Below, piece by piece: positions 3,230-31,891 of a DNA stretch of 64,000 nucleotides. The notes beneath the pieces were generated by a model. That model was not told the DNA's origin. It did no database searches and saw only the letters and a program-made list of their open reading frames with translations. The position numbers were made by a program, and so were the translations under genes. Every line of letters begins with the position of its first letter. Within the stretch, counting starts at the first letter, position 1. Source of the stretch: a phage; sequence record PX423614.1; one strand, given 5' to 3'.

Positions 3230-4039
3230 CTTCCTATATCGGTTGAACATGGTGAGCAATAATAACCATTGCAAGCTATGCCAGATAAAACGATGTAAGG
3301 CGCTCTAGAGTATCAGAGGAAACCGCTTTACAATCCCTTACTGGAAACGACACCACTGATAAATGAAGTTATTGAGTACATGCAAGGCTTAAGCTAATCG
3401 CCTACGGTTAAAGGGTAGCGGCGGCGGTGCTAGTAAAGTGCTACAATAATAGACGTTTATCGGGGTAGTTAAGTCCGACGAATTAACGCTCAATAGCGAG
3501 CGGCGGGAGGGGGTTAAAGAATGGCAAATTGCTATTTAACAATAAGGTTTAAGCGTGAGTATTTACTAAGTGAGTGTTTTGATACACATCAATAGCGATG
3601 TGAGTACATAAACATGTAGTGTAGTAAATCGTGAGAGAGATAATCAAACGCCAAAGTATCAGGCGGTCAATGACTCTTTACCATATGCTTTCCCATAGTA
3701 GGCGATAAGCAGGTTTAGAGAGTTGATATAAAAGGGTATCACGAAGCGAAAGCAAAGTAAATAGTAATGCCATCGGCTAGAAATTTAGCTAATTAGAGAT
3801 GGACGCGCTTGCCTTATTGTGATGATTGATCATCGCTGGCAAATCGGCTTTGTTTATAGCGATTAGTTAAATCCACCAGATGAAACATCACGGCAAGTTA
3901 GGCGGCAAGGTTAACTCCTGATAAGACCGCCTGATTTACCACTGGTTACTAGTAGTTAGTGATTAGTGTTAAGTCATTGTGACTTGAATAGCTCATAGAG
4001 AGCGGCGCATAGTGCGTTTACAATTGAAAGGTGAATATC
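3230..4039 (+). other. ~800-nt untranslated leader / candidate non-coding RNA region downstream of tandem promoter-boxA modules
   Basis: no ORF of 60 aa or more on either strand in the track; recurring motif GC(G/T)TTTACAAT at about 3019, 3339 and 4011; GCGGCGG-rich segments. Confidence 0.35.
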
Positions 4040-4942
4040 ATGGCTAAAGTTTTTAATCTGGTTAACGAATCCGGCTTTAATGCACTGGCAAACAACATTC
4101 GTAGTAACAACGCGGCAATCAAACAAGATGTTTCTAACTTCTTGTTAGGCCATTTGCAGCACTTCCGCACTAACGGTAAGAAACTGGATGTATTGCAGTC
4201 GGCGGTTGATTTTCTGTTAACTGAACGTTACCGTGATTTAGATGTAATTTCGGTTGCAATCTCTTTCCTTACTCCTATCAAATATAACACTGACGGGGCG
4301 AACGGTAAGAAGAAATGGATTAATCTGGAAGGTGAAGCGAAAGCTAAAGAAGATGCTAAACCGGAACAGGTTAAATCTAAAATGGAACAAAACCGCGCCC
4401 GCTGGTCGAACTCCTTTGAACGCTTTGCTAAAGGTGAAGACGTGCAGGTTGATAACCCAGCATTCTACAAAGGTTGTAATGACAACGTTCCGGTAGCAAA
4501 TCAAATCAACCAGAAGGTTAACGAAAACTTTAATCAGGATATTTATGCACTGGTTGACCGTCTGGCTGCAATCCGTATTGAAGCGGCACTACTGGCAGAT
4601 GAACGCAATGGCGCATCTTCTGACAATACCATCGCGTTGAGTGAAGAGGTTGGCAAAGTTAAGAAAACTTTTGATTCACTCCTTAAGAAAGTAACCGCGT
4701 CAACCGTATCAATCAGCGATGACTACCTGATCAATGCGTCAATGAAAGAGCTTGAGTCGCTGGACTCTTACGCTGATGAAATGGAAAAGGCGATCAACGA
4801 AATGACTGAGAAATTATCTAACCTTCGCGGTCGTATCTCAAACGCCTCAACTGTTAAAGCTAACGAGAAAGCTGCGCAGGAAGAGGAAGAAGTATTGCGC
4901 AAGGCCGCTGAGATTATGGCAGCGCGTCAACTGGCAGCATAA
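4040..4942 (+). CDS. abundant early protein of unknown function (300 aa)
   Basis: AAAGGTG RBS before ATG 4040; long ORF; followed by strong terminator. Confidence 0.6.
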   Translation: MAKVFNLVNESGFNALANNIRSNNAAIKQDVSNFLLGHLQHFRTNGKKLDVLQSAVDFLLTERYRDLDVISVAISFLTPIKYNTDGANGKKKWINLEGEAKAKEDAKPEQVKSKMEQNRARWSNSFERFAKGEDVQVDNPAFYKGCNDNVPVANQINQKVNENFNQDIYALVDRLAAIRIEAALLADERNGASSDNTIALSEEVGKVKKTFDSLLKKVTASTVSISDDYLINASMKELESLDSYADEMEKAINEMTEKLSNLRGRISNASTVKANEKAAQEEEEVLRKAAEIMAARQLAA

Positions 4943-4961
4943 CCAACAATAAAACACATGA

Positions 4962-4994
4962 GGCGCTATTCGAAAGGGTAGCGCCTTTTTCTTT
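4962..4994 (+). terminator. rho-independent terminator
   Basis: hairpin GGCGCTA...TAGCGCC followed by TTTTTCTTTT. Confidence 0.65.
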
Positions 4995-5274: not shown

Positions 5275-5492
5275 TCTTAACTCAATCCCATTTGTGCCCT
5301 ATCTGTAAGAAAGCACGTGCTAATAACAACCATCGCAAATGTAGCAGAATACTACAGCGTCGTCGTAATGATGCCGAGATGGATAAGATTAAAAAGAATC
5401 AGCATGAGCACGAAAGAAAACAAGCGGCGATTAGTGCATCAACTGTTATGTATCGTCGTGTAAGATCACTCCAATATAAAGGGGCTATTTAA
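5271..5492 (+). CDS. hypothetical basic protein with CxxC motif
   Basis: ORF with 4-nt overlap to neighbour; CPIC motif. Confidence 0.45.
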   Translation: MILTQSHLCPICKKARANNNHRKCSRILQRRRNDAEMDKIKKNQHEHERKQAAISASTVMYRRVRSLQYKGAI

Positions 5493-5701
5493 TGACCAGC
5501 TTAAGCACGTTAGAGAAGAAAGCTACTCGTTTGTTAGGACGTCGTGTCCGCTATCACTACCTGAATAAAGGTAAGGCATTAACCGGACGTATTACCACGG
5601 TATCTAGTTGTCGTGGTAAACTGATCTCTGTAAGTGTTCTCTTTGATGGCGAAAAGGTAGCAATTACACGTAGTTGGAAGTCATTTAGTTTAATTGATTA
5701 A
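5492..5701 (+). CDS. hypothetical protein
   Basis: ORF track; start overlaps upstream stop. Confidence 0.45.
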   Translation: MTSLSTLEKKATRLLGRRVRYHYLNKGKALTGRITTVSSCRGKLISVSVLFDGEKVAITRSWKSFSLID

Positions 5702-5771
5702 GTTATTTGGTTAAGCCTTGCTGTGTGGTAAGGCTTGCACGATATAATTTATCAGCGAAAGGAATAAAGAA

Positions 5772-16841: not shown

Positions 16842-17468
16842 GTGAGCTTGTTAAGAGATTTTCAACACTATTATTGTGGAACATGGATTGCTCAGCGATC
16901 ACCTGATGGTAAAAACCTCCCTCTATATGTGCTTGATGTTCGTCAGCAAGGTAACTTTGATATCGACGACTATTCACACGACGCTGAAATGTCTTTAGTG
17001 TTTGAGGCGGAACGCTGGACTAAAAACTCTGAAGGTCAGTTTGAACGTCAGGTTGTTAGTAATATCCCAGTGTTTGATCACAGCCTCATTCTGGAGTCTC
17101 CAGATGTAGGATACCTTCAGCATGGTAATAACATGGTGAGCTGGACCCATATCAACCCTGTTCGTCAGCGAGCTAAAGGCTTGATGGGGAATAAACTTCG
17201 TGGTGCTCCGCCTTCTCTCGGACGTTCGATTCCGGGTGATTTGGTGTACAACCTGTTTAATCCAGAGTTTGAAGGGTTGGTTACTCGTTTCATCTATATC
17301 AATCCTGTCGATGGAAAAGTTTATTACAAAGGAGCTTACGTTGGAAACGTGCTTCTTGAAGCTGGTTATGGCGACAATGGTCGTCAATCTTTAAACCTTC
17401 TGGAGAAGTTCAAGCATATTTCTTCAGACCTGTCATCATATAATGTAGAGTTGGTGGAATCATTATGA
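16842..17468 (+). CDS. hypothetical protein (208 aa), ligase cluster
   Basis: ORF track; between the two amidoligase-like paralogs. Confidence 0.5.
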   Translation: MSLLRDFQHYYCGTWIAQRSPDGKNLPLYVLDVRQQGNFDIDDYSHDAEMSLVFEAERWTKNSEGQFERQVVSNIPVFDHSLILESPDVGYLQHGNNMVSWTHINPVRQRAKGLMGNKLRGAPPSLGRSIPGDLVYNLFNPEFEGLVTRFIYINPVDGKVYYKGAYVGNVLLEAGYGDNGRQSLNLLEKFKHISSDLSSYNVELVESL

Positions 17469-18565
17469 CAACCGTAGCACAAGTTTTTGGATACCGTAAC
17501 CCTCGCTTATCTGAACCGCATCCAAGTATTGCTTTTCAGTGTGGTGTTGGTATTGAGTTAGAAGTCGAAGGTACAACTGACATTGACGCTGATATGTGGG
17601 TTTGTACTGAAGATGGCTCTCTTCGTGATGGTTGTGAATTAGTATGTGCACGACCTTACAACGGTGAAGAACTACTTCGTGCTATTAACAATCTGAGTGA
17701 AGCAGTACAGGATTCCGGAGCCGAGGGAACTTGGCGCTGCTCCACTCACGTTCATATGGATATGCGTGACGCTGATAGTAATATCCTTAAGAAAGTTATT
17801 CTTGGATGGACGTTCTATGAAAAGATGATGTTCAAATGTTCTGGATACCATCGCTATCGTAGCAACTTCTGTCCAGCTTTTGCTGTCGTTCAAGCACAAG
17901 TTATGAATGCTTCGTCAGCGTTCAACCGAGACGGGGAAGCTTTCTTCCACTCTCTTGTTAATAGCTGGGATAAATATACCTCCCTTAATCTTTTGCCTCT
18001 ATCTCAATTTGGTTCTGTTGAGTTCCGTATCTCAGAGCCGAAGTGGAAAAAGAGCCAACTTCTGAATCTGGTCAACCGCTTCTTGGTTCTCAAGAAACTG
18101 GCTGTTGAATATGCAGATTTAGACAATGAAGCTTATGTTGAGAAGTTGAATGAGCTGCGCTTCGCTCCTATGATTCAACATCTACCCCTAGACTATACTC
18201 CAAGAGACAGCGATCTCACTGAAGGGTATCGTCTTGCTCGTGATATTCTCTTCTGTCGTGAGCAATCTGTAACTTTGGTTGGTCGTGTTCGTGTGCAACA
18301 GACTGGCCCTGATGGTGAAGTCCTTATCAACTTACGTGATATGAATGACTTCTATGGTTTCTTGGGATATGTGCGCGGTAATGCCAACAGTGTCTACGAA
18401 GAGATCATGACCTACTACACCCCTCAGATTGAAAGCACTCGAATCGCAACGGTTCGTGAAATTCGTCACATATTTGCATTGATGCGTGAATCAGGTAGCA
18501 GTGATGATAACGTCACTGGTTATATTCCAGACCATCTGGAAATGCAATTAGAACGACTGCTGTAA
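17465..18565 (+). CDS. amidoligase-like protein, paralog B
   Basis: E-x-E, E, H-x-H and E-x-R motif series shared with paralog A; this pattern is typical of glutamine-synthetase-like carboxylate-amine ligases. Confidence 0.4.
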   Translation: MTTVAQVFGYRNPRLSEPHPSIAFQCGVGIELEVEGTTDIDADMWVCTEDGSLRDGCELVCARPYNGEELLRAINNLSEAVQDSGAEGTWRCSTHVHMDMRDADSNILKKVILGWTFYEKMMFKCSGYHRYRSNFCPAFAVVQAQVMNASSAFNRDGEAFFHSLVNSWDKYTSLNLLPLSQFGSVEFRISEPKWKKSQLLNLVNRFLVLKKLAVEYADLDNEAYVEKLNELRFAPMIQHLPLDYTPRDSDLTEGYRLARDILFCREQSVTLVGRVRVQQTGPDGEVLINLRDMNDFYGFLGYVRGNANSVYEEIMTYYTPQIESTRIATVREIRHIFALMRESGSSDDNVTGYIPDHLEMQLERLL

Positions 18566-18642: not shown

Positions 18643-20676
18643 ATTTGTGGTATCGTATTAGCTGGCGGCAACATGACCTCAGCAGATTTGGACATTTTCA
18701 ACCAACTTCTGTATGCTGGTGTTTTCCGTGGACAGCACTCAACTGGTGTGTTTGGTCAGCGTAAAGGTGAAAAGCAAGTCTTCTCTTATAAAGAAGCTCT
18801 TCCTTCTTATGCTTTTATGCTCCAGACAGAATATACAAATATTACCAAAGGGCTTACGAACTACGTAGTTCCTCCTTCGTGGATTGTTGGTCACAGCCGA
18901 CATGCCACTCGTGGGGCTGTCAATGCTCGAAATGCTCACCCATTTACTCACGGGGATATTACTCTGGTTCATAATGGAACCCTGTTAGATCAAGATCTCC
19001 TTCCTGACAGTAAGCGTTTCGAAGTTGATAGTGAAAACATCTGCCACTCAATTAACACCATTGGAGCAGCAGAGACTATCCAAAAACTGGATGGTGCATT
19101 CACTTTGATTTGGCATGATGCTAAAGACAACACGCTTCACATTATCCGTAATGATGAGCGTCCTTTCCACCTAGCCCGCTGTGGTTTGGATTGGTTTGGA
19201 GCTTCTGAAGAAGCTATGCTTATGTGGATTTTAGAGCGTTCTAAGTCCCATAAGAACCGTATCAATGACCACTTCGAATGTAAAGTGGGAACTGAGTATA
19301 TCTTTGATGTGTCTAACAGTCGTATGACTCTGGTTCAAGAGGTGGAGCACACGCTTCCGGTTTTTACGGTAACGAGTCGCTGGGGCGGCTATTACTCGAA
19401 CTCCTCTCTTTATCAGAACCAACAGACAAACAAATCAAGCAGCAGCACAAGCGACATTTACGGAAACAAAGACGACAAGCCCGGCGTGACAAGCGGAGAC
19501 ATTCGTCGTCGTAAAGCGATTGAAGACCAGAACAAACTGGCTGCCGATCGTGGTCTTCCTTATCGTCGTGATGGTCGTGTGGATATTATTCCTCATGAGT
19601 TCCATGCTTATAACAACACAGATCGTGGTAAGATGGTTGGTTACATCTACGATGATAAAGCTCAAGAGTATGTCGAAGGGGATGTTCACAACGTAGCCAA
19701 AGATGAATATCTTAAGGCTCTTGAAAACCCAAAGGTAGTATATCGCGGGACGATTGCTTGTATCTCCGAAGTGGACAGTATGATTCGCCTCGTACTAACT
19801 TCAGGGCTGTTTGTTGATGCTACAGATAAGGAGCCTCAAAGCACTACTGCTGATTTTGATGATGATATCCCTTTTGATGCAGAGGACTCCTTCATCACTA
19901 AGAATGGTGTAGAAGTCACTCGTAAGTTCTGGGAATCTCACTCTCATGGTGACTGTGGTGGTTGTGATAAGCACATTGACTGGAAAGATGCTCGTAAGGC
20001 TGTGTTTGCTTATCAGGCATACTGGCATCCAGAATGCTTCGAAGCGTTATCTAAAACCTCTGAAGAGGAAGAAGATGTGCCTTTGGGTGTATGTGCTATC
20101 TGTGGTGAAGTCAAGACTGATTTCGAGTTTGACAACGAAATGAGTAAACTTCGTGGTGAAGACGTTTGTTATATCTGCTCCAAAGAAATCAAAGATAAAG
20201 TAAAGAATGTTACTCTATCTGAAGGTTATATTTGGACTAAAGCAGTAGACACAACCAACCCACGTCGTCCTGAAGTAGCTGTTCGTGTTGATGAACGTAT
20301 GCTTAGCCGTATGATTGTAATGGTCAGCTCAGCAAAACGTTCAGGGGATATTACACTTGCAGATGTTCCTAATTCGTATTTGGAAAAACGTGGTGGTGAT
20401 ACTTATGCCATCTCTGTTTATGGTCCAAAGAATTCCCCAAAGGAGGTACCCGCTGAGAAAGCGGAGACATTTCCAGAAAAGTCAACCTCTCTCCGAAAAA
20501 CAGTTGTCAGTTATGATGGACAACGAACAGCTGAGTTTACAAAAGCCCTCTGGACTTCAATTGGGTTTTGTGCAGTCTGTTATAAACAAATTCCGTGGCG
20601 TGATGCAGAAACTTGCTCACTGAACAAAGAAAACAGGGTGATCTGTAATTCAGATTACTGTAAAGGTAAACACTAA
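18643..20676 (+). CDS. class-II glutamine amidotransferase-like domain fused to Cys-rich zinc-ribbon-like C-terminal region
   Basis: in-frame upstream extension encodes CGIVLAGG, matching the N-terminal nucleophile block (M)CGIVG of PurF/GlmS/AsnB; RG..STG, GHSRHATRG, NAHPF and VHNG motifs; C-terminal CGGC, CAICGE, CYICSKE, CAVCYKQ clusters; first in-frame ATG is at 18673. Confidence 0.55.
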   Translation: MCGIVLAGGNMTSADLDIFNQLLYAGVFRGQHSTGVFGQRKGEKQVFSYKEALPSYAFMLQTEYTNITKGLTNYVVPPSWIVGHSRHATRGAVNARNAHPFTHGDITLVHNGTLLDQDLLPDSKRFEVDSENICHSINTIGAAETIQKLDGAFTLIWHDAKDNTLHIIRNDERPFHLARCGLDWFGASEEAMLMWILERSKSHKNRINDHFECKVGTEYIFDVSNSRMTLVQEVEHTLPVFTVTSRWGGYYSNSSLYQNQQTNKSSSSTSDIYGNKDDKPGVTSGDIRRRKAIEDQNKLAADRGLPYRRDGRVDIIPHEFHAYNNTDRGKMVGYIYDDKAQEYVEGDVHNVAKDEYLKALENPKVVYRGTIACISEVDSMIRLVLTSGLFVDATDKEPQSTTADFDDDIPFDAEDSFITKNGVEVTRKFWESHSHGDCGGCDKHIDWKDARKAVFAYQAYWHPECFEALSKTSEEEEDVPLGVCAICGEVKTDFEFDNEMSKLRGEDVCYICSKEIKDKVKNVTLSEGYIWTKAVDTTNPRRPEVAVRVDERMLSRMIVMVSSAKRSGDITLADVPNSYLEKRGGDTYAISVYGPKNSPKEVPAEKAETFPEKSTSLRKTVVSYDGQRTAEFTKALWTSIGFCAVCYKQIPWRDAETCSLNKENRVICNSDYCKGKH

Positions 20677-26489: not shown

Positions 26490-27962
26490 ATGATTAAGAT
26501 TCCATTGTCTGAATTGAACCTTCAAGAAGGAGAAGCCCTCAGTGTAGGGCTTGACCTGATTCGTAATTTGATCAGAGATAACGTAGTCCCTGATGGCATC
26601 TATCCTGTTATTGCAGGTGGTGCTATCCGTGATACGTTCTTCCAAAATAGAACTCCGAATGATGTTGATATCTTCCTAGTTCAAGGAGGGTTTCGTTGGA
26701 ACACTCGTCAGGAAAACAGCCCTGCTAACGTAGGTAATGCTGCACTTTTCCTTGACAACTTCTTATCTTGGACAGAAAGTAAGGGGCTTCAGGTTACATC
26801 TCGACTAATTCAGCCTGTTAACGGGACAACCTATGCTGAAGCGCTTTTCACTTTCCAAGAGATTCTGGAAATTGAGATTGATCAAGTTAAAATCCAGATG
26901 ATGATTAATCTACCTTTGGATATGGATACTTTAAGCCGTCGCTTCCCTATGATCTGTCAAGGGTTTATGACTCTTGGTAATCTGTATGTGTCAAACGAAG
27001 GTTTGTTTGCAATGTCATACACTCGTGACATTCCTGTGGTATCTAGTCGTGAAATGAAGTACGTTCACAAGAAGTGGCCTGAAGCAACTGTTGCAGTTTA
27101 TAGCAGTTCTACCGAATATATGCACCTTGCAATGGGAGCTTTCGGTGAGCCAGAAGTTCACCTGATTAGTGATTTAGTTGGACCTATGGCTGGTGTAAAT
27201 TTATATCAGAATCAGCGTCGTCATTATACCCTGAAGATGATGGAAACTATATTAAACATTCCTCAGGAAAGGGGTCGTAGTTATCTGGACGAGGAAGTTA
27301 ACCTACAGACAGAATGGTCTAGTGGATTAACCACTATAGGTGCTGAAGCAATCACGCAGCCTTGGACTCCGGGAACTAACAGACGAGATCTTCAAGCTTT
27401 TAATGAAGAAACTTCTCGAACAGTTCGAGGAGGTGTTGTAGGGTATAACGTACAACCTCATGAAAGACCTCGTGACACTTTCACTGGCAGTTTTGGTAGT
27501 GCACGCTCTTCTGGAGTGGATACTCGTACATGGCATGTCCAAGGAGGAACTGCTCGTCCTATTCCCTCTCCGTCAATGGATGATTTGCAGCGTTCTCGTC
27601 GTTCATGGGAAACAGTAAGCTCTGTTGTTCAGGGTCTACGTGCTAGAGATATTGAACGTGTAGAAGTTGGTGATTTGCCAACCCCTACAGAAGATCGAGT
27701 ATCAGCTATAGCGGCTCGTGAAGCTGCTCATATTGGTTTTGCATCATTAACTAATGACGCTAACGAAGCTCCTCGACCTGTTGGTCGTCGTAATGGTCTA
27801 GCTCACTCTGACACTGCACTTGGTGCAGAACTACGAGCAGCAGCTCGTGAGCTATCTGGTGAGCTTCACAACAACCTAGCAGGTGTTACACTATCTCGTG
27901 AAACAGCTCGTAATATGATTAATAATTTGGCATCATCTGTACAAGGAAACAGAAACTCATGA
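26490..27962 (+). CDS. polymerase-beta superfamily nucleotidyltransferase with disordered Arg/Ser/Thr-rich C-terminal half
   Basis: VIAGGAIRD...NDVDIF matches the GG...DxD head-domain signature of CCA-adding/poly(A) polymerase-type nucleotidyltransferases. Confidence 0.45.
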   Translation: MIKIPLSELNLQEGEALSVGLDLIRNLIRDNVVPDGIYPVIAGGAIRDTFFQNRTPNDVDIFLVQGGFRWNTRQENSPANVGNAALFLDNFLSWTESKGLQVTSRLIQPVNGTTYAEALFTFQEILEIEIDQVKIQMMINLPLDMDTLSRRFPMICQGFMTLGNLYVSNEGLFAMSYTRDIPVVSSREMKYVHKKWPEATVAVYSSSTEYMHLAMGAFGEPEVHLISDLVGPMAGVNLYQNQRRHYTLKMMETILNIPQERGRSYLDEEVNLQTEWSSGLTTIGAEAITQPWTPGTNRRDLQAFNEETSRTVRGGVVGYNVQPHERPRDTFTGSFGSARSSGVDTRTWHVQGGTARPIPSPSMDDLQRSRRSWETVSSVVQGLRARDIERVEVGDLPTPTEDRVSAIAAREAAHIGFASLTNDANEAPRPVGRRNGLAHSDTALGAELRAAARELSGELHNNLAGVTLSRETARNMINNLASSVQGNRNS

Positions 27963-28492
27963 GTCTTTTAGGTTCTCAAGAATTACACAGCGTTATCGAT
28001 AATGGCTTTTTAGATGCGGAGCATAAATATGTTAACGCTGCTAGCGTGGATATCCGTATTGGTGATACTATCCTTGTTGAAGAACAGGCTGATGGTATTG
28101 TTGACATTGATGCTAAAGAAAACCTCAAGTGGAAAGAAGTGAAAATCCCTGAAGATGGCATTGTCATTACTCCGGGACAGTTCTTCTTAGCTCACTCTAT
28201 GGAAGAATTTAACCTTCCAGACAATATTTCAAGTCTGTTTGTACTCCGCTCCTCAATGGCTCGTTGTGGTTTAAACCACTTACATGCTGGGTGGGCTGAT
28301 GCAGGGTTTAACAGCAGTAAGCTAACCTTTGAGTTCCATAACGTTACCCACAATCACAGCTTACGAGTTCGTGCTGGGATGCGTGTTGGTCAAATGGTTA
28401 TGTTTGAACACTCTCACGCTGGTGATGATTCCTATGCAGTGAAGGGTCGTTATAATAACTCTGATGGGGTTGTTGCTTCTAAAGGCGTATAA
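27959..28492 (+). CDS. dcd: dCTP deaminase (Dcd)/dUTPase superfamily protein
   Basis: aligns with E. coli Dcd: ASVDIRIG, ITPGQFFLAHS, RSSMARCGL, AGWADAGF, catalytic-Glu block TFEF, GMRVGQMV. Confidence 0.65.
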   Translation: MSLLGSQELHSVIDNGFLDAEHKYVNAASVDIRIGDTILVEEQADGIVDIDAKENLKWKEVKIPEDGIVITPGQFFLAHSMEEFNLPDNISSLFVLRSSMARCGLNHLHAGWADAGFNSSKLTFEFHNVTHNHSLRVRAGMRVGQMVMFEHSHAGDDSYAVKGRYNNSDGVVASKGV

Positions 28493-28708
28493 TTGATGGA
28501 GTTTGGAACAATGAAAAGACGTTGGGTAGTCCGCGTTCACTGGAGCAGTGGTACAGAATCAATGGGTATCAGAAACACTCGTCAAGAAGCTCGCGCTCAT
28601 AAGAAGTTCTTATTAAGCTGCGAAAGTACTATTGACAAGATCACTATCCACAAAGCTCAGGACTTTAAATCAGGTCGTTTCTATATCAGCGGAAAGGTAC
28701 ATTACTAA
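28493..28708 (+). CDS. small protein, KVHY-tail family copy 1
   Basis: W.VRV.W...TRQEAR...I.IHK...KVHY pattern shared by four ORFs. Confidence 0.5.
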   Translation: MMEFGTMKRRWVVRVHWSSGTESMGIRNTRQEARAHKKFLLSCESTIDKITIHKAQDFKSGRFYISGKVHY

Positions 28709-28914
28709 TGGCTAAATTATGGGCAGTTCGTGTTAAATGGGCTAACAAAGATCTTGGTGGTGATTGTCTTAAACTGTTTGACACACGACAAGAAGCTCGT
28801 CTTGCTAAGAAAGCTACAAAAGCTTTAGGTCTCGCTGAAAAAGTAGAGATTCATCGTTGGTTTCAAAATGATAATAACAGTGCAGGATCCTTGACTAGCA
28901 AGGTTCATTACTAG
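28708..28914 (+). CDS. small protein, KVHY-tail family copy 2
   Basis: LWAVRVKW...TRQEARLAKKA...SKVHY. Confidence 0.5.
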   Translation: MAKLWAVRVKWANKDLGGDCLKLFDTRQEARLAKKATKALGLAEKVEIHRWFQNDNNSAGSLTSKVHY

Positions 28915-28966: not shown

Positions 28967-29314
28967 ATGAAACAGGAGAGAGTTATGTTAGATTTGAGTA
29001 AAGTGGCCCCGCCATCTGAAGAGATTAGCAAAGCTAAAGTTATGCAGCAGTTCTATCATCGTGATATGCTTGGTCGTTATATCAAGAATCGTGATGTTGT
29101 TGCATGGTCTATTGGAAATCAAGGTTATCTTCTCAAAGTGTTGCAAGTTACTGGCTCAACAGCCAAGCGAGTCAAAGTCTATGACCCTGAAATGGGGCGT
29201 TCTAAATCAGTAGACCCTCAGAATTGCATTGTTATCACACAACAGGTCATGGATAACATTGCTCGTAATGTAGCTAATTCAACTAACTTAGAAGGGGATG
29301 CACCTAATGCATAA
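28967..29314 (+). CDS. hypothetical protein
   Basis: ORF track; AAATGTATATA motif about 25 bp upstream. Confidence 0.45.
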   Translation: MKQERVMLDLSKVAPPSEEISKAKVMQQFYHRDMLGRYIKNRDVVAWSIGNQGYLLKVLQVTGSTAKRVKVYDPEMGRSKSVDPQNCIVITQQVMDNIARNVANSTNLEGDAPNA

Positions 29315-29873
29315 TAATGTCTTCGACTTACCTGAACTAACACGAGTGGGTTCTAGCAACCCATTCTCTACTACTGACTCTTCTATCTCTCGTCTTGAGG
29401 GAATGAATAAACTGATTAGCGGTAACAGCTTAGAACACATCTTGTGTGGTGTGCAAGCTAACCTTGAACTTCTACACATCAAAGCAAAGAACTACCACTG
29501 GAACGTCTCTGGAGCTGGTTTCCAAGGTGTTCATGGTATGTTCGATGAGTTAGAAGATTATGCTCGTGAGGCAGGCGACCGAATAGCAGAGCGTATGCGC
29601 TTTCACTGTGTTAAAGTGGATGCTACTGCTAGTAACTATTTAGGTCATGCTTGGTTCCGAGAAGGTAACGCTGATCTCGACATGGACGGTATGCTTTCCG
29701 ACATGTGCATGACTCTGATGTGTATCATTGAAAAGATGGACGAGTTTGATTCAGACTTGTGCACTTATCCAGTTGACCAGAGTATGCTTCAAGAAATTAA
29801 TGAAGGTCTTGGCAAGTTCTGCTACTTCGTCAAGAGCAACATGTCCCACTCCAGTGGTGACGTGTCTTACTAA
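29298..29873 (+). CDS. Dps-like ferritin-superfamily protein
   Basis: HWNVSGAGFQGVHGMFDELEDYAREAGDRIAER matches the Dps signature H-W-N-V-x-G...H...F.E...E; alternative internal start at 29403 possible. Confidence 0.55.
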   Translation: MHLMHNNVFDLPELTRVGSSNPFSTTDSSISRLEGMNKLISGNSLEHILCGVQANLELLHIKAKNYHWNVSGAGFQGVHGMFDELEDYAREAGDRIAERMRFHCVKVDATASNYLGHAWFREGNADLDMDGMLSDMCMTLMCIIEKMDEFDSDLCTYPVDQSMLQEINEGLGKFCYFVKSNMSHSSGDVSY

Positions 29874-29930
29874 TCAAACCTCCGCCCTGTCTCTTTGTTT
29901 AAGAGGTGGGGCGAACTTCTTTATAAGGAT

Positions 29931-30116
29931 ATGAGTATGTTTTCAGCAATCGTATGGTCTGTATGGGCAATTCTTGTTGGTGGTATCGTTTATCTGGCTC
30001 AGAAGCAGATGCTTAAAGAGAATCCGAATGATGCTAAACCTATTAAACATGGCAGCATTGCTCTGGTAATTTTCTCTGTTGTTATTCCTTTCCTTCTCCA
30101 CCTGTTGACTGCATAA
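29931..30116 (+). CDS. small membrane protein (two helices), tandem paralog 1
   Basis: AAGGA RBS; hydrophobic helices; paralog of the following interrupted gene. Confidence 0.5.
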   Translation: MSMFSAIVWSVWAILVGGIVYLAQKQMLKENPNDAKPIKHGSIALVIFSVVIPFLLHLLTA

Positions 30117-30125
30117 GGGTTTGAT

Positions 30126-30315
30126 ATGATTTCACTGATTGTGTGGGCCGTGTGGTCGTTAATAGTTGGTACTGTTATATATATATAAAGCTCGAAATTT
30201 AGCAATTAAAGAAAACCCAGCAGAAGAGGATGTTAAAGCTATCAAGCTAGGTAGTGTTGTTCTGGTACATTTTGCTATAACACTACCTCTTGTTATTATT
30301 CTTTGTATGCTATAA
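30126..30315 (+). pseudogene. frameshifted tandem paralog of 29931-30116 (interrupted at an (AT)5 tract)
   Basis: frame 0 stops after 20 codons within ATATATATATA (30177-30187); a +1 shift restores a C-terminal half similar to the upstream paralog. Confidence 0.4.
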
Positions 30316-30505: not shown

Positions 30506-30781
30506 ATGAGTAAAGTAATTAAGTTTTATAGTAATTCATGTGCTCCGTGTGCAGCTATGGCTCCTGTGTTTAAGAAGGTTGTGGCTGACTATAGTGTAGA
30601 AGTTGAAGAAGTAAATATCTCTGAAGGTGATGGTCGAGAGCGAGCCGTTGAATATGGTGTTCGCAGTATCCCAGCCTTTGTCGTCCCTGATAAGAACAGT
30701 GGTGCTCATTATAGTTTATCAGGTATGCAAACTGAATCTAATCTCCGTGCATTTTTAGACACGGCTCTGAAAGGTATTTAA
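30506..30781 (+). CDS. thioredoxin/glutaredoxin-like protein (CxxC active site)
   Basis: KFYSNSCAPCAAMAP CxxC motif in thioredoxin-fold position; downstream IPAFVV cis-Pro-like motif. Confidence 0.5.
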   Translation: MSKVIKFYSNSCAPCAAMAPVFKKVVADYSVEVEEVNISEGDGRERAVEYGVRSIPAFVVPDKNSGAHYSLSGMQTESNLRAFLDTALKGI

Positions 30782-30782
30782 T

Positions 30783-30998
30783 ATGGAAAAGAAACCTTGG
30801 ATTACTTTTTGGGTAGTTAAGTGGTTTAATTTTGATAGCACAATCCCTAGCCTCTCCTCGTACACAACACGGAGAGAGGCTCGCCGCTTTAAGCGAGCTT
30901 TAAAAATTGCTAACACTGGTGCTTCTAAGATCACAATCCAGAAAGGGATTGAAACAGAAAGTGGAAGCAATCTGATTTATAAAAAGATTTACTATTAA
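30783..30998 (+). CDS. small protein, KVHY-tail family copy 3
   Basis: WVVKW...TRREARRFKRALK...ITIQK...KKIYY. Confidence 0.5.
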   Translation: MEKKPWITFWVVKWFNFDSTIPSLSSYTTRREARRFKRALKIANTGASKITIQKGIETESGSNLIYKKIYY

Positions 30999-31013: not shown

Positions 31014-31226
31014 ATGACTCAAGGAAAAGATGTGTATTTTTGGGCTGTTGTTTCTGAATATCCAGAGATGGAGTATCCAAGGGTTAACACGTGTGCTACT
31101 CGTAAAACTGCACGATGCACTAAACGTGCCCTCAAGAAGATGGGTCGTGATTCGAAGATTTCAATCCACCGTGCATATATGACAGCAGCGGGTTTCATTG
31201 TAGTAACACCAAAAGTTTATTATTAA
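31014..31226 (+). CDS. small protein, KVHY-tail family copy 4
   Basis: FWAVV...TRKTARCTKRALK...ISIHR...PKVYY. Confidence 0.5.
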   Translation: MTQGKDVYFWAVVSEYPEMEYPRVNTCATRKTARCTKRALKKMGRDSKISIHRAYMTAAGFIVVTPKVYY

Positions 31227-31240
31227 GGAAGAGTTCAAGG

Positions 31241-31891
31241 ATGAATGAACAATTACAAGCAACACTAATTGAAGCAATGGGAAATGACAAAACCGTTGTT
31301 AACGCAGCTCGGGTTTCTTTTGGAGTCACTCGTGAAGGAGAGTTAAATGAACGTGATGAACGCCTTATCAAATTCCTTGCCAGAGAAAAACACTGTACAC
31401 CATTCCGTCATCCGACAATTAGCTTCCGATGCAAAGCGCCAATCGCAATTGCGAGGCAGCTGGGCAAGCATCAAGTTGGATTCTCGTGGAACGAAATGTC
31501 CCGGCGGTATAAAGATGGAGCAGTTGAACTCTTCATCCCTAAAGAGATTTTTGAAAGACCTTCGGACCTCCATGCAGGTGCGGGGAATCTCCTCACCACA
31601 GGAGCACAAAACTCTGCACTAGTCCTGATTAATCGGGCATATGAAACAGCTCTTGAGTCATATGATGAGTTGATTAAGTTCATCGCTCCAGAGCAAGCTC
31701 GATTCGTACTACCTCAGGGAATGATCACTGAGTGGGTGTGGACAGGCTCTTTATATGGTTGGTCAGAGTTGTGTCGTCAGCGACTGTCCGACCATGCTCA
31801 GTATGAAGTACGAGTGTTCGCATCAACGGTCGATGAAGAGCTTCGTAAACTTTTCCCAATCTCATGGGACGCACTACGTGAAGCCCACTAA
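31241..31891 (+). CDS. thyX: ThyX-like flavin-dependent thymidylate synthase homolog with divergent RHR motif
   Basis: KHQVGFSWNEMSRRY resembles the ThyX signature RHR-x-x-S-xxxx-S-x-RY but RHR is replaced by KHQ. Confidence 0.5.
   Translation: MNEQLQATLIEAMGNDKTVVNAARVSFGVTREGELNERDERLIKFLAREKHCTPFRHPTISFRCKAPIAIARQLGKHQVGFSWNEMSRRYKDGAVELFIPKEIFERPSDLHAGAGNLLTTGAQNSALVLINRAYETALESYDELIKFIAPEQARFVLPQGMITEWVWTGSLYGWSELCRQRLSDHAQYEVRVFASTVDEELRKLFPISWDALREAH

Follow-up and report, generated by a model that had tools for sequence, protein, structure and literature searches.

A predicted Dps-type mini-ferritin with a conserved ferroxidase site encoded among the DNA-synthesis genes of a phiEco32-like Kuravirus

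As judged from its sequence and predicted structure, a gene of a phiEco32-like Kuravirus coliphage encodes a genuine member of the Dps-type mini-ferritin family in which the inter-subunit ferroxidase ligand set is complete. The gene was identified in the window, by which we mean the whole stretch of 64,000 nucleotides that was analyzed. By analogy with cellular Dps proteins we consider it probable, at roughly 0.6, that the product is a working mini-ferritin that would clear Fe(II) and H2O2 as phage DNA is made and thereby limit Fenton damage. Membership in the Dps family was already known, having been annotated since the phiEco32 genome of 2008, with identical proteins present in GenBank, and our result mainly confirms and tidies that annotation; our literature searches found neither biochemical nor genetic work on the function of a phage Dps. 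What is new here is a corrected start codon, a column-wise check of the metal site, a description of both tails, the correction of an "integrase" label, a coupled upstream gene (gp68), a 3' hairpin and a doubt about DNA binding.

The earlier note had reported a Dps-like ORF at 29298-29873; the ORF is present there on the plus strand, with its start codon now corrected to 29307. The features that bear on the gene call are as follows:

29298..29873, plus strand: the ORF as first listed, 191 aa, which includes the string HWNVSGAGFQGVHGMFDELEDYAREAGDRIAER quoted in the earlier note
29307..29873, plus strand: the Dps-family gene with the preferred start, 188 aa plus stop, starting at Met4 of the 191-aa ORF
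29292..29298, plus strand: Shine-Dalgarno-like GAAGGGG, 8 nt ahead of the ATG at 29307, found by sequence inspection

The ORF opens with ATG-CAC-CTA-ATG, the second in-frame ATG being that at 29307, where this start codon and the stop of the preceding gene overlap as ATGcaTAA (29307-29314). The annotated start of phiEco32 gp67 is the codon equivalent to this ATG, and the called lengths of all Kuravirus-type homologs in the databases are 187-190 aa. The Shine-Dalgarno spacing, the homolog lengths and the phiEco32 gp67 start together make the ATG at 29307 the most likely true start, and residues are numbered here from Met4 of the 191-aa ORF. Close upstream of the gene start there was no copy of the phage sigma-factor promoter motif TAATGTAT, for which the nearest sites were at 565 and 33780, and a scan for the sigma-70 consensus near the gene identified sites no more numerous than in shuffled sequence.

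The assignment of the product to the Dps-like ferritin fold, as the earlier note had claimed, was borne out by Pfam, PHROG, PDB sequence matches, an AlphaFold2 model and Foldseek, all of which agreed. Ferritin (PF00210) was the sole Pfam match above its curated cut-off, with a score of 32.9 bits (gathering cut-off, 24.5) over a span limited to residues 59-102. The match to PHROG 3636 covered residues 40-184 (E=9.8e-53). Dozens of Dps proteins were returned by phmmer against the PDB sequences, with Mycobacterium smegmatis Dps2 at the top (E about 1e-9), and barring a handful of matches at E>0.3 all of those returned belonged to the Dps family. The NCBIfam Dps and DpsA equivalog models scored 17-35 bits (34.7 versus 114 for Dps) against cut-offs of 114-300, and since these scores are far under the cut-offs, the phage protein is best described as a member of the family and not as an equivalog of the curated cellular or host Dps proteins. 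At the level of sequence, the resemblance to Dps is far above that of a chance motif. Divergence in helices C and D was too great for confident alignment by sequence methods.

The AlphaFold2 model, for which 23 homologs were used as input, had a mean pLDDT of 83.8, with values above 90 in the core (residues 41-180). This is the structure prediction that had been proposed as a check for a four-helix bundle, and a bundle with the additional BC helix of Dps was what it returned:

29430..29837, plus strand: Dps four-helix-bundle core, with helices A 42-66, B 72-99, BC 108-113, C 126-151 and D 155-177 in the AlphaFold2 model

The short helix at 108-113, in the loop between helices B and C, corresponds to the Dps topology, and the bundle ends with helix D, lacking the C-terminal E helix of 24-mer ferritins. 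When the model was compared with the PDB by Foldseek, the best 50 matches were all subunits of Dps dodecamers, typically with an rmsd of 1.2-2.3 Å over about 140 columns and a target-normalised TM of 0.8-0.9. Assignment to the 24-mer ferritin/bacterioferritin class, whose marks are a di-iron site within one subunit and a fifth helix, was considered and rejected, because the strong PDB sequence and fold matches were all Dps proteins and the metal-site residues are arranged as in Dps.

The residues of the ferroxidase centre are contained in a short segment of the gene:

29496..29591, plus strand: ferroxidase-centre segment, with His64, Trp65, His76, Asp80, Asp91 and Glu95 (His67, Trp68, His79, Asp83, Asp94 and Glu98 in the numbering of the 191-aa ORF)

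These residues share alignment columns with H51/W52/H63/D67/D78/E82 of E. coli Dps and with H31/W32/H43/D47/D58/E62 of Listeria innocua Dps, the reference sequences being identical to PDB 1f30 and 1qgh, respectively. An alignment had been suggested as a way to reveal missing metal-site residues, and no ligand was absent. Since all five ligands fall in the E. coli and L. innocua columns, the inter-subunit ligand set is complete. The spacing is His, a second His 12 residues on and Asp 4 further, followed by an Asp and a Glu that are spaced by 4 along helix B. The earlier note had described a Dps hallmark with His, Asp and Glu at the expected spacing, and that description holds, in that the five ligands plus the Trp align exactly and are conserved in the phage family. 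Among 23 phage homologs, with identities down to 25%, H64, W65, H76, D91 and E95 are invariant and D80 is nearly so; as the ligands have been conserved over such divergence, selection has kept the catalytic site and not the fold alone. In published Dps structures the His/His/Asp set comes from one subunit and the Asp/Glu pair from its partner, and since the conserved active site is inter-subunit, at least a two-fold dimer is implied. The three-fold pore is less well matched: of the aspartates that line it in L. innocua Dps, only D121 pairs with an Asp of the phage protein, whereas D126 and D130 pair with Pro and Ser. Further acidic residues are present near the pore positions, in EFDSDLCTYPVDQ. 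With a single one of the three pore aspartates matched by an acidic residue, the route by which iron enters may differ.

Among characterized Dps proteins, M. smegmatis Dps2 (PDB 2z90, 4m35 and 8hwz) was the best match in both sequence and structure, at 24-26% identity, rmsd 1.2-2.3 Å and target-normalised TM 0.8-0.89, and its H-W-N-V...H...D...D...E segment is nearly identical to that of the phage protein. Relative to Dps2, the phage protein adds a non-basic N-terminal extension of 41 aa, a C-terminal tail ending in Tyr and six cysteines. E. coli Dps (PDB 1dps, 1f30) has the same fold and the same ligands at 18% identity, but its N-terminal tail is Lys-rich (6 K/R in 28 residues), whereas the phage protein has no such tail. 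L. innocua Dps (PDB 1qgh), a mini-ferritin that does not bind DNA, likewise shares the fold and ligands (22% identity) and likewise has no basic tail.

The surrounding 6 kb of the window are about 94% identical to Bas87 and IME267, and the protein is 100% identical to copies in HC-25922 and SU7 and 84% identical to phiEco32 phi32_67 (gp67, YP_001671812). Copies more than 80% identical were found in 98 of 99 related Kuravirus-like records. In these orthologs, which include phiEco32 gp67 and SU10 CDS67, the gene, its genomic position, the upstream gp68 and the downstream hairpin are the same, and only the content of small ORFs around it differs. Beyond this group, copies at 29-43% identity are present in Grimontviridae (Privateer, SE131, ECO319P1), Cronobacter phages and Lahexavirus phages of Aeromonas. 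Of these, Privateer gp068/QIN94861, SE131 gp090, ECO319P1_00054 and LAh8_124 have the same ligands and belong to the same dNTP/replication module, but the Grimontviridae/Lahexavirus proteins are shorter (144-156 aa) and have neither the long N-terminal extension nor the Tyr tail; a short basic N-terminal tail occurs in some of them, and the next gene is usually an ATP-cone or NrdD gene. In all, detectable homologs of the phage clade were found in 134 of 50,697 phage records. Among 1.84 billion representative proteins searched, just 2 clusters matched at E<1e-30 and 12 at E<1e-10, with cellular Dps proteins following the phage clade at 1e-10 to 1e-5. The suggestion that Dps is an unusual function for a lytic phage was right in part: few phages overall carry the gene, but within its own lineage it is usual, and the SU10 paper lists it as common to all sequenced podophages of the C3 morphotype. 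A recent capture of the host dps gene was rejected as its origin, since the phage protein shares only 18% identity with E. coli Dps and belongs to a clade that spans several phage families; this low identity, together with the small number of close representative clusters, indicates an old, lineage-specific acquisition.

The names given to the gene in GenBank vary and include "DNA-binding protein", "ferric iron binding protein", "DNA protection during starvation protein", "hypothetical protein" and "integrase", and phiEco32 phi32_67 is called a DNA binding protein, with a RefSeq note that reads "member of the Dps family". We weighed the possibility that the product is an integrase, as it is called in IME267, MLP3, ES17 and many other records. 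All that speaks for it is the product name in the GenBank/RefSeq records, and it is refuted by the Pfam result, which includes Ferritin but no recombinase domain, and by the Dps four-helix-bundle fold of the model. As judged from domain content and predicted structure, the name is an annotation error that was copied between records. The correction matters because an integrase label can wrongly flag lytic phages that are therapeutic candidates as temperate.

The gene is situated between a dCTP deaminase gene on one side and the thioredoxin and ThyX genes on the other, with PhoH and DNA polymerase genes further downstream:

27959..28492, plus strand: dCTP deaminase of the dNTP-synthesis module (Pfam DCD, E=1.5e-34)
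28985..29314, plus strand: gp68-like small ORF, 109 aa from the phiEco32-equivalent start (phrog_10984)
30506..30781, plus strand: thioredoxin of the redox and dNTP module (Pfam Thioredoxin, E=1.1e-12)
31241..31891, plus strand: ThyX, flavin-dependent thymidylate synthase (Pfam Thy1, E=1.4e-42)

The divergent homologs that we examined were also always within a dNTP-synthesis/replication module. The gene order in Privateer is dCTP deaminase, thioredoxin, gp68-like ORF, Dps and ATP-cone protein; in SE131 it is ThyX, Dps and ATP-cone protein; in LAh_8 it is NrdD, PhoH, NrdG, gp68-like ORF, Dps and ATP-cone protein; and in ECO319P1 it is thioredoxin, gp68-like ORF, Dps and NrdD. Homologs of gp68 are present in all five lineages (BLASTP E 1e-15 to 1e-17 versus the window copy), and the gp68-like ORF is directly upstream of the Dps gene in four of the five (the window, Privateer, LAh_8 and ECO319P1) and displaced in SE131. 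In the four lineages the gp68 stop and the Dps start overlap, as ATGcaTAA, TAATG, TAATG and ATGA. This coupled pair has, as far as we found, not been pointed out before, and gp68, being translationally coupled, may be a partner of the Dps protein. Searches with gp68 identified nothing in Pfam, the unknown-function family phrog_10984 among the PHROGs and a best E of 0.17 in the PDB profile search; its AlphaFold2 model had a mean pLDDT of 46.

[quoted passage not shown] CDS68, the gp68 of SU10, was detected as well (PMC4281155). As the sample had merely been PEG-concentrated and also contained the polymerase and thioredoxin, these detections indicate expression and not a location in the virion (PMC4281155).

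Given the fold, the ligand set and this neighbourhood, the role that we favor is the removal of iron and peroxide during DNA synthesis. The gp67 ortholog would be produced abundantly, as a middle-class protein, alongside the enzymes of dNTP synthesis and replication. Its two-fold dimers would be expected to assemble into a dodecameric cage, as those of cellular Dps do, and the inter-subunit ferroxidase sites would then oxidize Fe(II), preferably with H2O2, and store the iron inside the cage. Both Fenton reagents would in this way be removed while the phage DNA replicates, which would shield it and nearby redox-sensitive enzymes. H2O2 is the oxidant that Dps proteins prefer, and ThyX has an NADPH-oxidase side activity. 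The protection might coincide with the presence of redox-sensitive or H2O2-producing enzymes, namely ThyX and thioredoxin and, in relatives, the anaerobic NrdD/NrdG. The protection of DNA that the earlier note had mentioned is something that we infer from cellular Dps proteins. It is important to note that this mechanism gives no role to the N-terminal extension, the Tyr-ended C-terminal tail, the 5-10 cysteines or the coupled gp68, and that the E. coli host already has a Dps of its own. If the mechanism is correct, a catalytically intact mini-ferritin that is kept in the DNA-synthesis module across virus families could reveal a general requirement for iron/peroxide control in phage replication.

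The two ends of the protein were examined by alignment and in the AlphaFold2 model:

29307..29429, plus strand: N-terminal extension, 41 aa, lineage-specific, with 3 K/R versus 4 D/E
29838..29870, plus strand: C-terminal tail SNMSHSSGDVSY, acidic to neutral, with Tyr at its end

Two motifs are conserved in the N-terminal extension: MHNNxFDLP, with which it opens, and a helix of the form S(L/M)xRL(D/E)xM. Confidence in this part of the model was low (pLDDT 40-62, with a helix at 26-38), and a comparison by eye of the FDLP motif with clamp-binding and SSB-tail motifs gave no convincing match. The C-terminal tail contains no K/R, and 12 of the 14 long Kuravirus-type homologs that were aligned end in Tyr. 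There are six cysteines in the protein studied here and 5-10 in Kuravirus-type proteins, versus none in E. coli Dps. The Kuravirus protein is acidic overall, with a pI of 4.79 and 14 K/R versus 28 D/E.

These termini bear on the alternative that the protein primarily binds DNA, coating or condensing that of the phage or the host so as to remodel the nucleoid or organize replication compartments, with iron chemistry being secondary. E. coli Dps binds DNA through its Lys-rich N-terminal tail, some cellular Dps proteins are established to compact DNA, and a Lys/Arg-rich tail is not required for membership in the wider Dps family. In agreement with a DNA-binding role are the 'DNA binding protein' label in phiEco32 and many relatives, the position of the gene among replication genes and the small basic N-terminal tail of the short Grimontviridae-type homologs, such as MLTARARTSRN. 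However, the Lys/Arg-rich flexible tail of the E. coli-type DNA-binding Dps is absent from both Kuravirus termini, and a purely architectural role would not need the strict conservation of the ferroxidase ligands. Since the Kuravirus form is acidic and its N-terminal tail is not basic, the "DNA-binding" label is unsupported and seems to have been inherited from the name of the family, no assay behind it having been found in the literature. From its composition, direct DNA binding by the Kuravirus form on its own is unlikely, and we regard a primarily architectural, DNA-compacting role of the protein as unlikely too. Another alternative has the protein interfere with host iron or with a host defence, by starving the host or a defence pathway, by feeding iron to phage enzymes or by acting as a decoy for factors that recognize host Dps. 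The abundance of the protein in SU10 (PMC4281155), the high divergence of the clade (the 12 clusters noted above), the lineage-specific terminal motifs, which resemble interaction peptides, and the adjacency of NrdD/NrdG, an Fe-S enzyme system, in relatives could all be read in this manner. On the other hand, the large ORFs of the window include neither an RNR nor any other iron enzyme that was obvious, and our literature searches found no anti-defence function for the phage Dps family, and we consider this alternative very improbable.

The remaining alternatives place the protein in the virion. Encapsulin systems consist of HK97-fold shells that package iron-oxidizing, ferritin-like cargo. 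In one form of the idea, Dps would be enclosed together with the genome, or be attached to it, inside the very elongated C3-type heads, where it would condense or protect the particle DNA or from which it would arrive at infection, with the terminal extensions or gp68 possibly serving in loading. In its favor is that the predicted Dps homolog of Privateer was among about ten proteins identified by mass spectrometry of whole particles, from virions purified on a CsCl step gradient and then an equilibrium gradient (PMC7881722), and that every C3-morphotype podophage lineage examined carries the gene. In CsCl, however, Dps that is loaded with iron or bound to DNA could band together with phage, and the Privateer-type homologs are those without the N-terminal extension. 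By position, the gene belongs to the replication module of the middle genes rather than to the late structural genes, the tail channel would not let a cage of about 9 nm pass, and the SU10 detection came from the PEG-concentrated sample described above. In addition, gp67 goes unmentioned in a cryo-EM study of CsCl-purified SU10 virions, which gives the internal ejection proteins as gp20-24 and whose gel-MS covered major bands only (PMC9509320). Taking these points together, we regard a location in or on the virion as clearly unlikely. The more specific proposal that the Dps of C3 podophages is a capsid-associated, iron-oxidizing nanocage on or in virions, as a phage counterpart of the ferritin cargo of encapsulins, is in our estimation quite improbable; loading might depend on the terminal peptides specific to the lineage or on the coupled gp68, and the cage would protect or organize the packed genome. 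The likeness to encapsulins is conceptual, in that a ferritin-superfamily iron oxidase is combined with a capsid of the HK97 lineage, and the Kuravirus gene lies outside the structural module. An association with the virion, if true, would represent a new type of capsid cargo.

Proteins of uncultured phages gave a lead in the same direction. A fold search of viral predicted structures (BFVD) identified Dps-fold domains within long proteins named "Prohead protease", of 333-763 aa, and a metagenomic tandem Dps-Dps protein (P0124) with a long basic tail, encoded on a 4-kb contig that was too short to give useful gene context, had a weak match to a head-maturation-protease PHROG (E=0.0018). Pfam identified Ferritin only in the long Dps fusions that the search of representative proteins had returned, P0124 among them. 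The gene for another of these (P0112), on a 53-kb contig of which 14.6 kb was read, adjoins genes for ThyX, a helicase and a methyltransferase, and not head genes. No Dps fusion of the head-protease kind was found among the annotated phage genomes in our collection. This lead keeps the idea of a capsid cargo alive for some phages but is no evidence for it in the Kuravirus studied here.

Directly 3' of the Dps stop codon there is an inverted repeat:

29883..29913, plus strand: 13-bp hairpin, -18.6 kcal/mol, z = -3.1

The arms of the stem are identical in phiEco32, with a different loop. In the terminator scan the run of T residues after the hairpin was weak, and the element may for that reason be a leaky terminator or one that stabilizes the mRNA. 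As predicted from sequence and folding energy, it is likely a terminator or a 3' mRNA-stabilizing element.

The Dps gene is preceded by a small ORF whose product, a gp68-like protein (phrog_10984), is kept in five phage lineages, and in four of these the stop codon of the small ORF overlaps the Dps start codon. The neighborhood also holds two separate sets of paralogs, one of four ORFs of ~70 aa that flank the Dps gene and one of two small predicted membrane proteins that follow directly on its hairpin. In the window these are as follows:

28493..28708, + strand, ~70-aa paralog, phrog_4939 match
28708..28914, + strand, ~70-aa paralog, phrog_4939 match
28985..29314, + strand, gp68-like small protein
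29895..30116, + strand, small predicted membrane protein, phrog_9296 match (unknown function)
30166..30315, + strand, small predicted membrane protein, paralog of the preceding one
30783..30998, + strand, ~70-aa paralog, phrog_4939 match
31014..31226, + strand, ~70-aa paralog, sharing the pattern of the other three copies

The gp68-like proteins have invariant residues that include HRD.L.R, W, G and P.N..VI..Q; searches of Pfam and the PDB returned no match, and the AF2 model had a pLDDT of 46. All three ~70-aa paralogs that were scanned matched phrog_4939 (unknown function), and all four copies share the pattern W.V.V.W ... TR.EAR..KK ... I.I.K, with (H/Y)Y as their last two residues. It is unusual for a replication module to contain a family of small proteins in several copies. 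The two membrane proteins have KENP...IK.GS..LV.F in common.

In Privateer, SE131 and LAh_8 the Dps gene is followed immediately by a free-standing ATP-cone protein, 90-99 aa long, and no ATP-cone protein was present at that position in the Kuravirus window. The relevant features of the related loci are:

Privateer (L002), 4639-4923, gp68-like homolog; 5398-5694, ATP-cone protein (Pfam PF03477, E=2e-20)
SE131 (L003), 3382-3648, gp68-like homolog; 5408-5707, ATP-cone protein
LAh_8 (L004), 4609-4962, gp68-like homolog; 5429-5701, ATP-cone protein
ECO319P1 (L005), 3687-3956, gp68-like homolog

In uncultured phages a Dps-fold domain can be joined to other regions within long proteins (BFVD A0A6J7XDU5, A0A6J7WPK9 and A0A6J7WIS1; P0124, metagenomic contig L006, 615-2948; P0112, contig L007, 8001-9005). 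Several of these fusions carry the annotation "Prohead protease". One has two Dps domains in tandem (Dps-Dps), a GRVLNGRN motif and a basic tail rich in Arg, Gly and Ser. Dps may thus be a capsid cargo in other phage groups.

Many Kuravirus records in GenBank/RefSeq, RefSeq entries included, name the Dps gene "integrase" (among others IME267, vB_EcoP-101114UKE3, MLP3, ES17 and KBNP1711). This label is a propagated annotation error, which could wrongly imply a temperate lifestyle for these lytic phages.

TAATGTAT, described in SU10 as the promoter core of the phage sigma factor, occurs in seven exact copies in the window versus 2.7 expected by chance (+ strand, 565, 33780 and 40543; - strand, 40473, 49775, 52776 and 53136), none of them directly upstream of the Dps gene. 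Two ORFs in the early region are the counterparts of proteins that MS detected in SU10, its "ATP-grasp enzyme" and its "glutamine amidotransferase":

17465..18565, + strand, amidoligase-like ORF
18673..20676, + strand, class-II glutamine amidotransferase ORF
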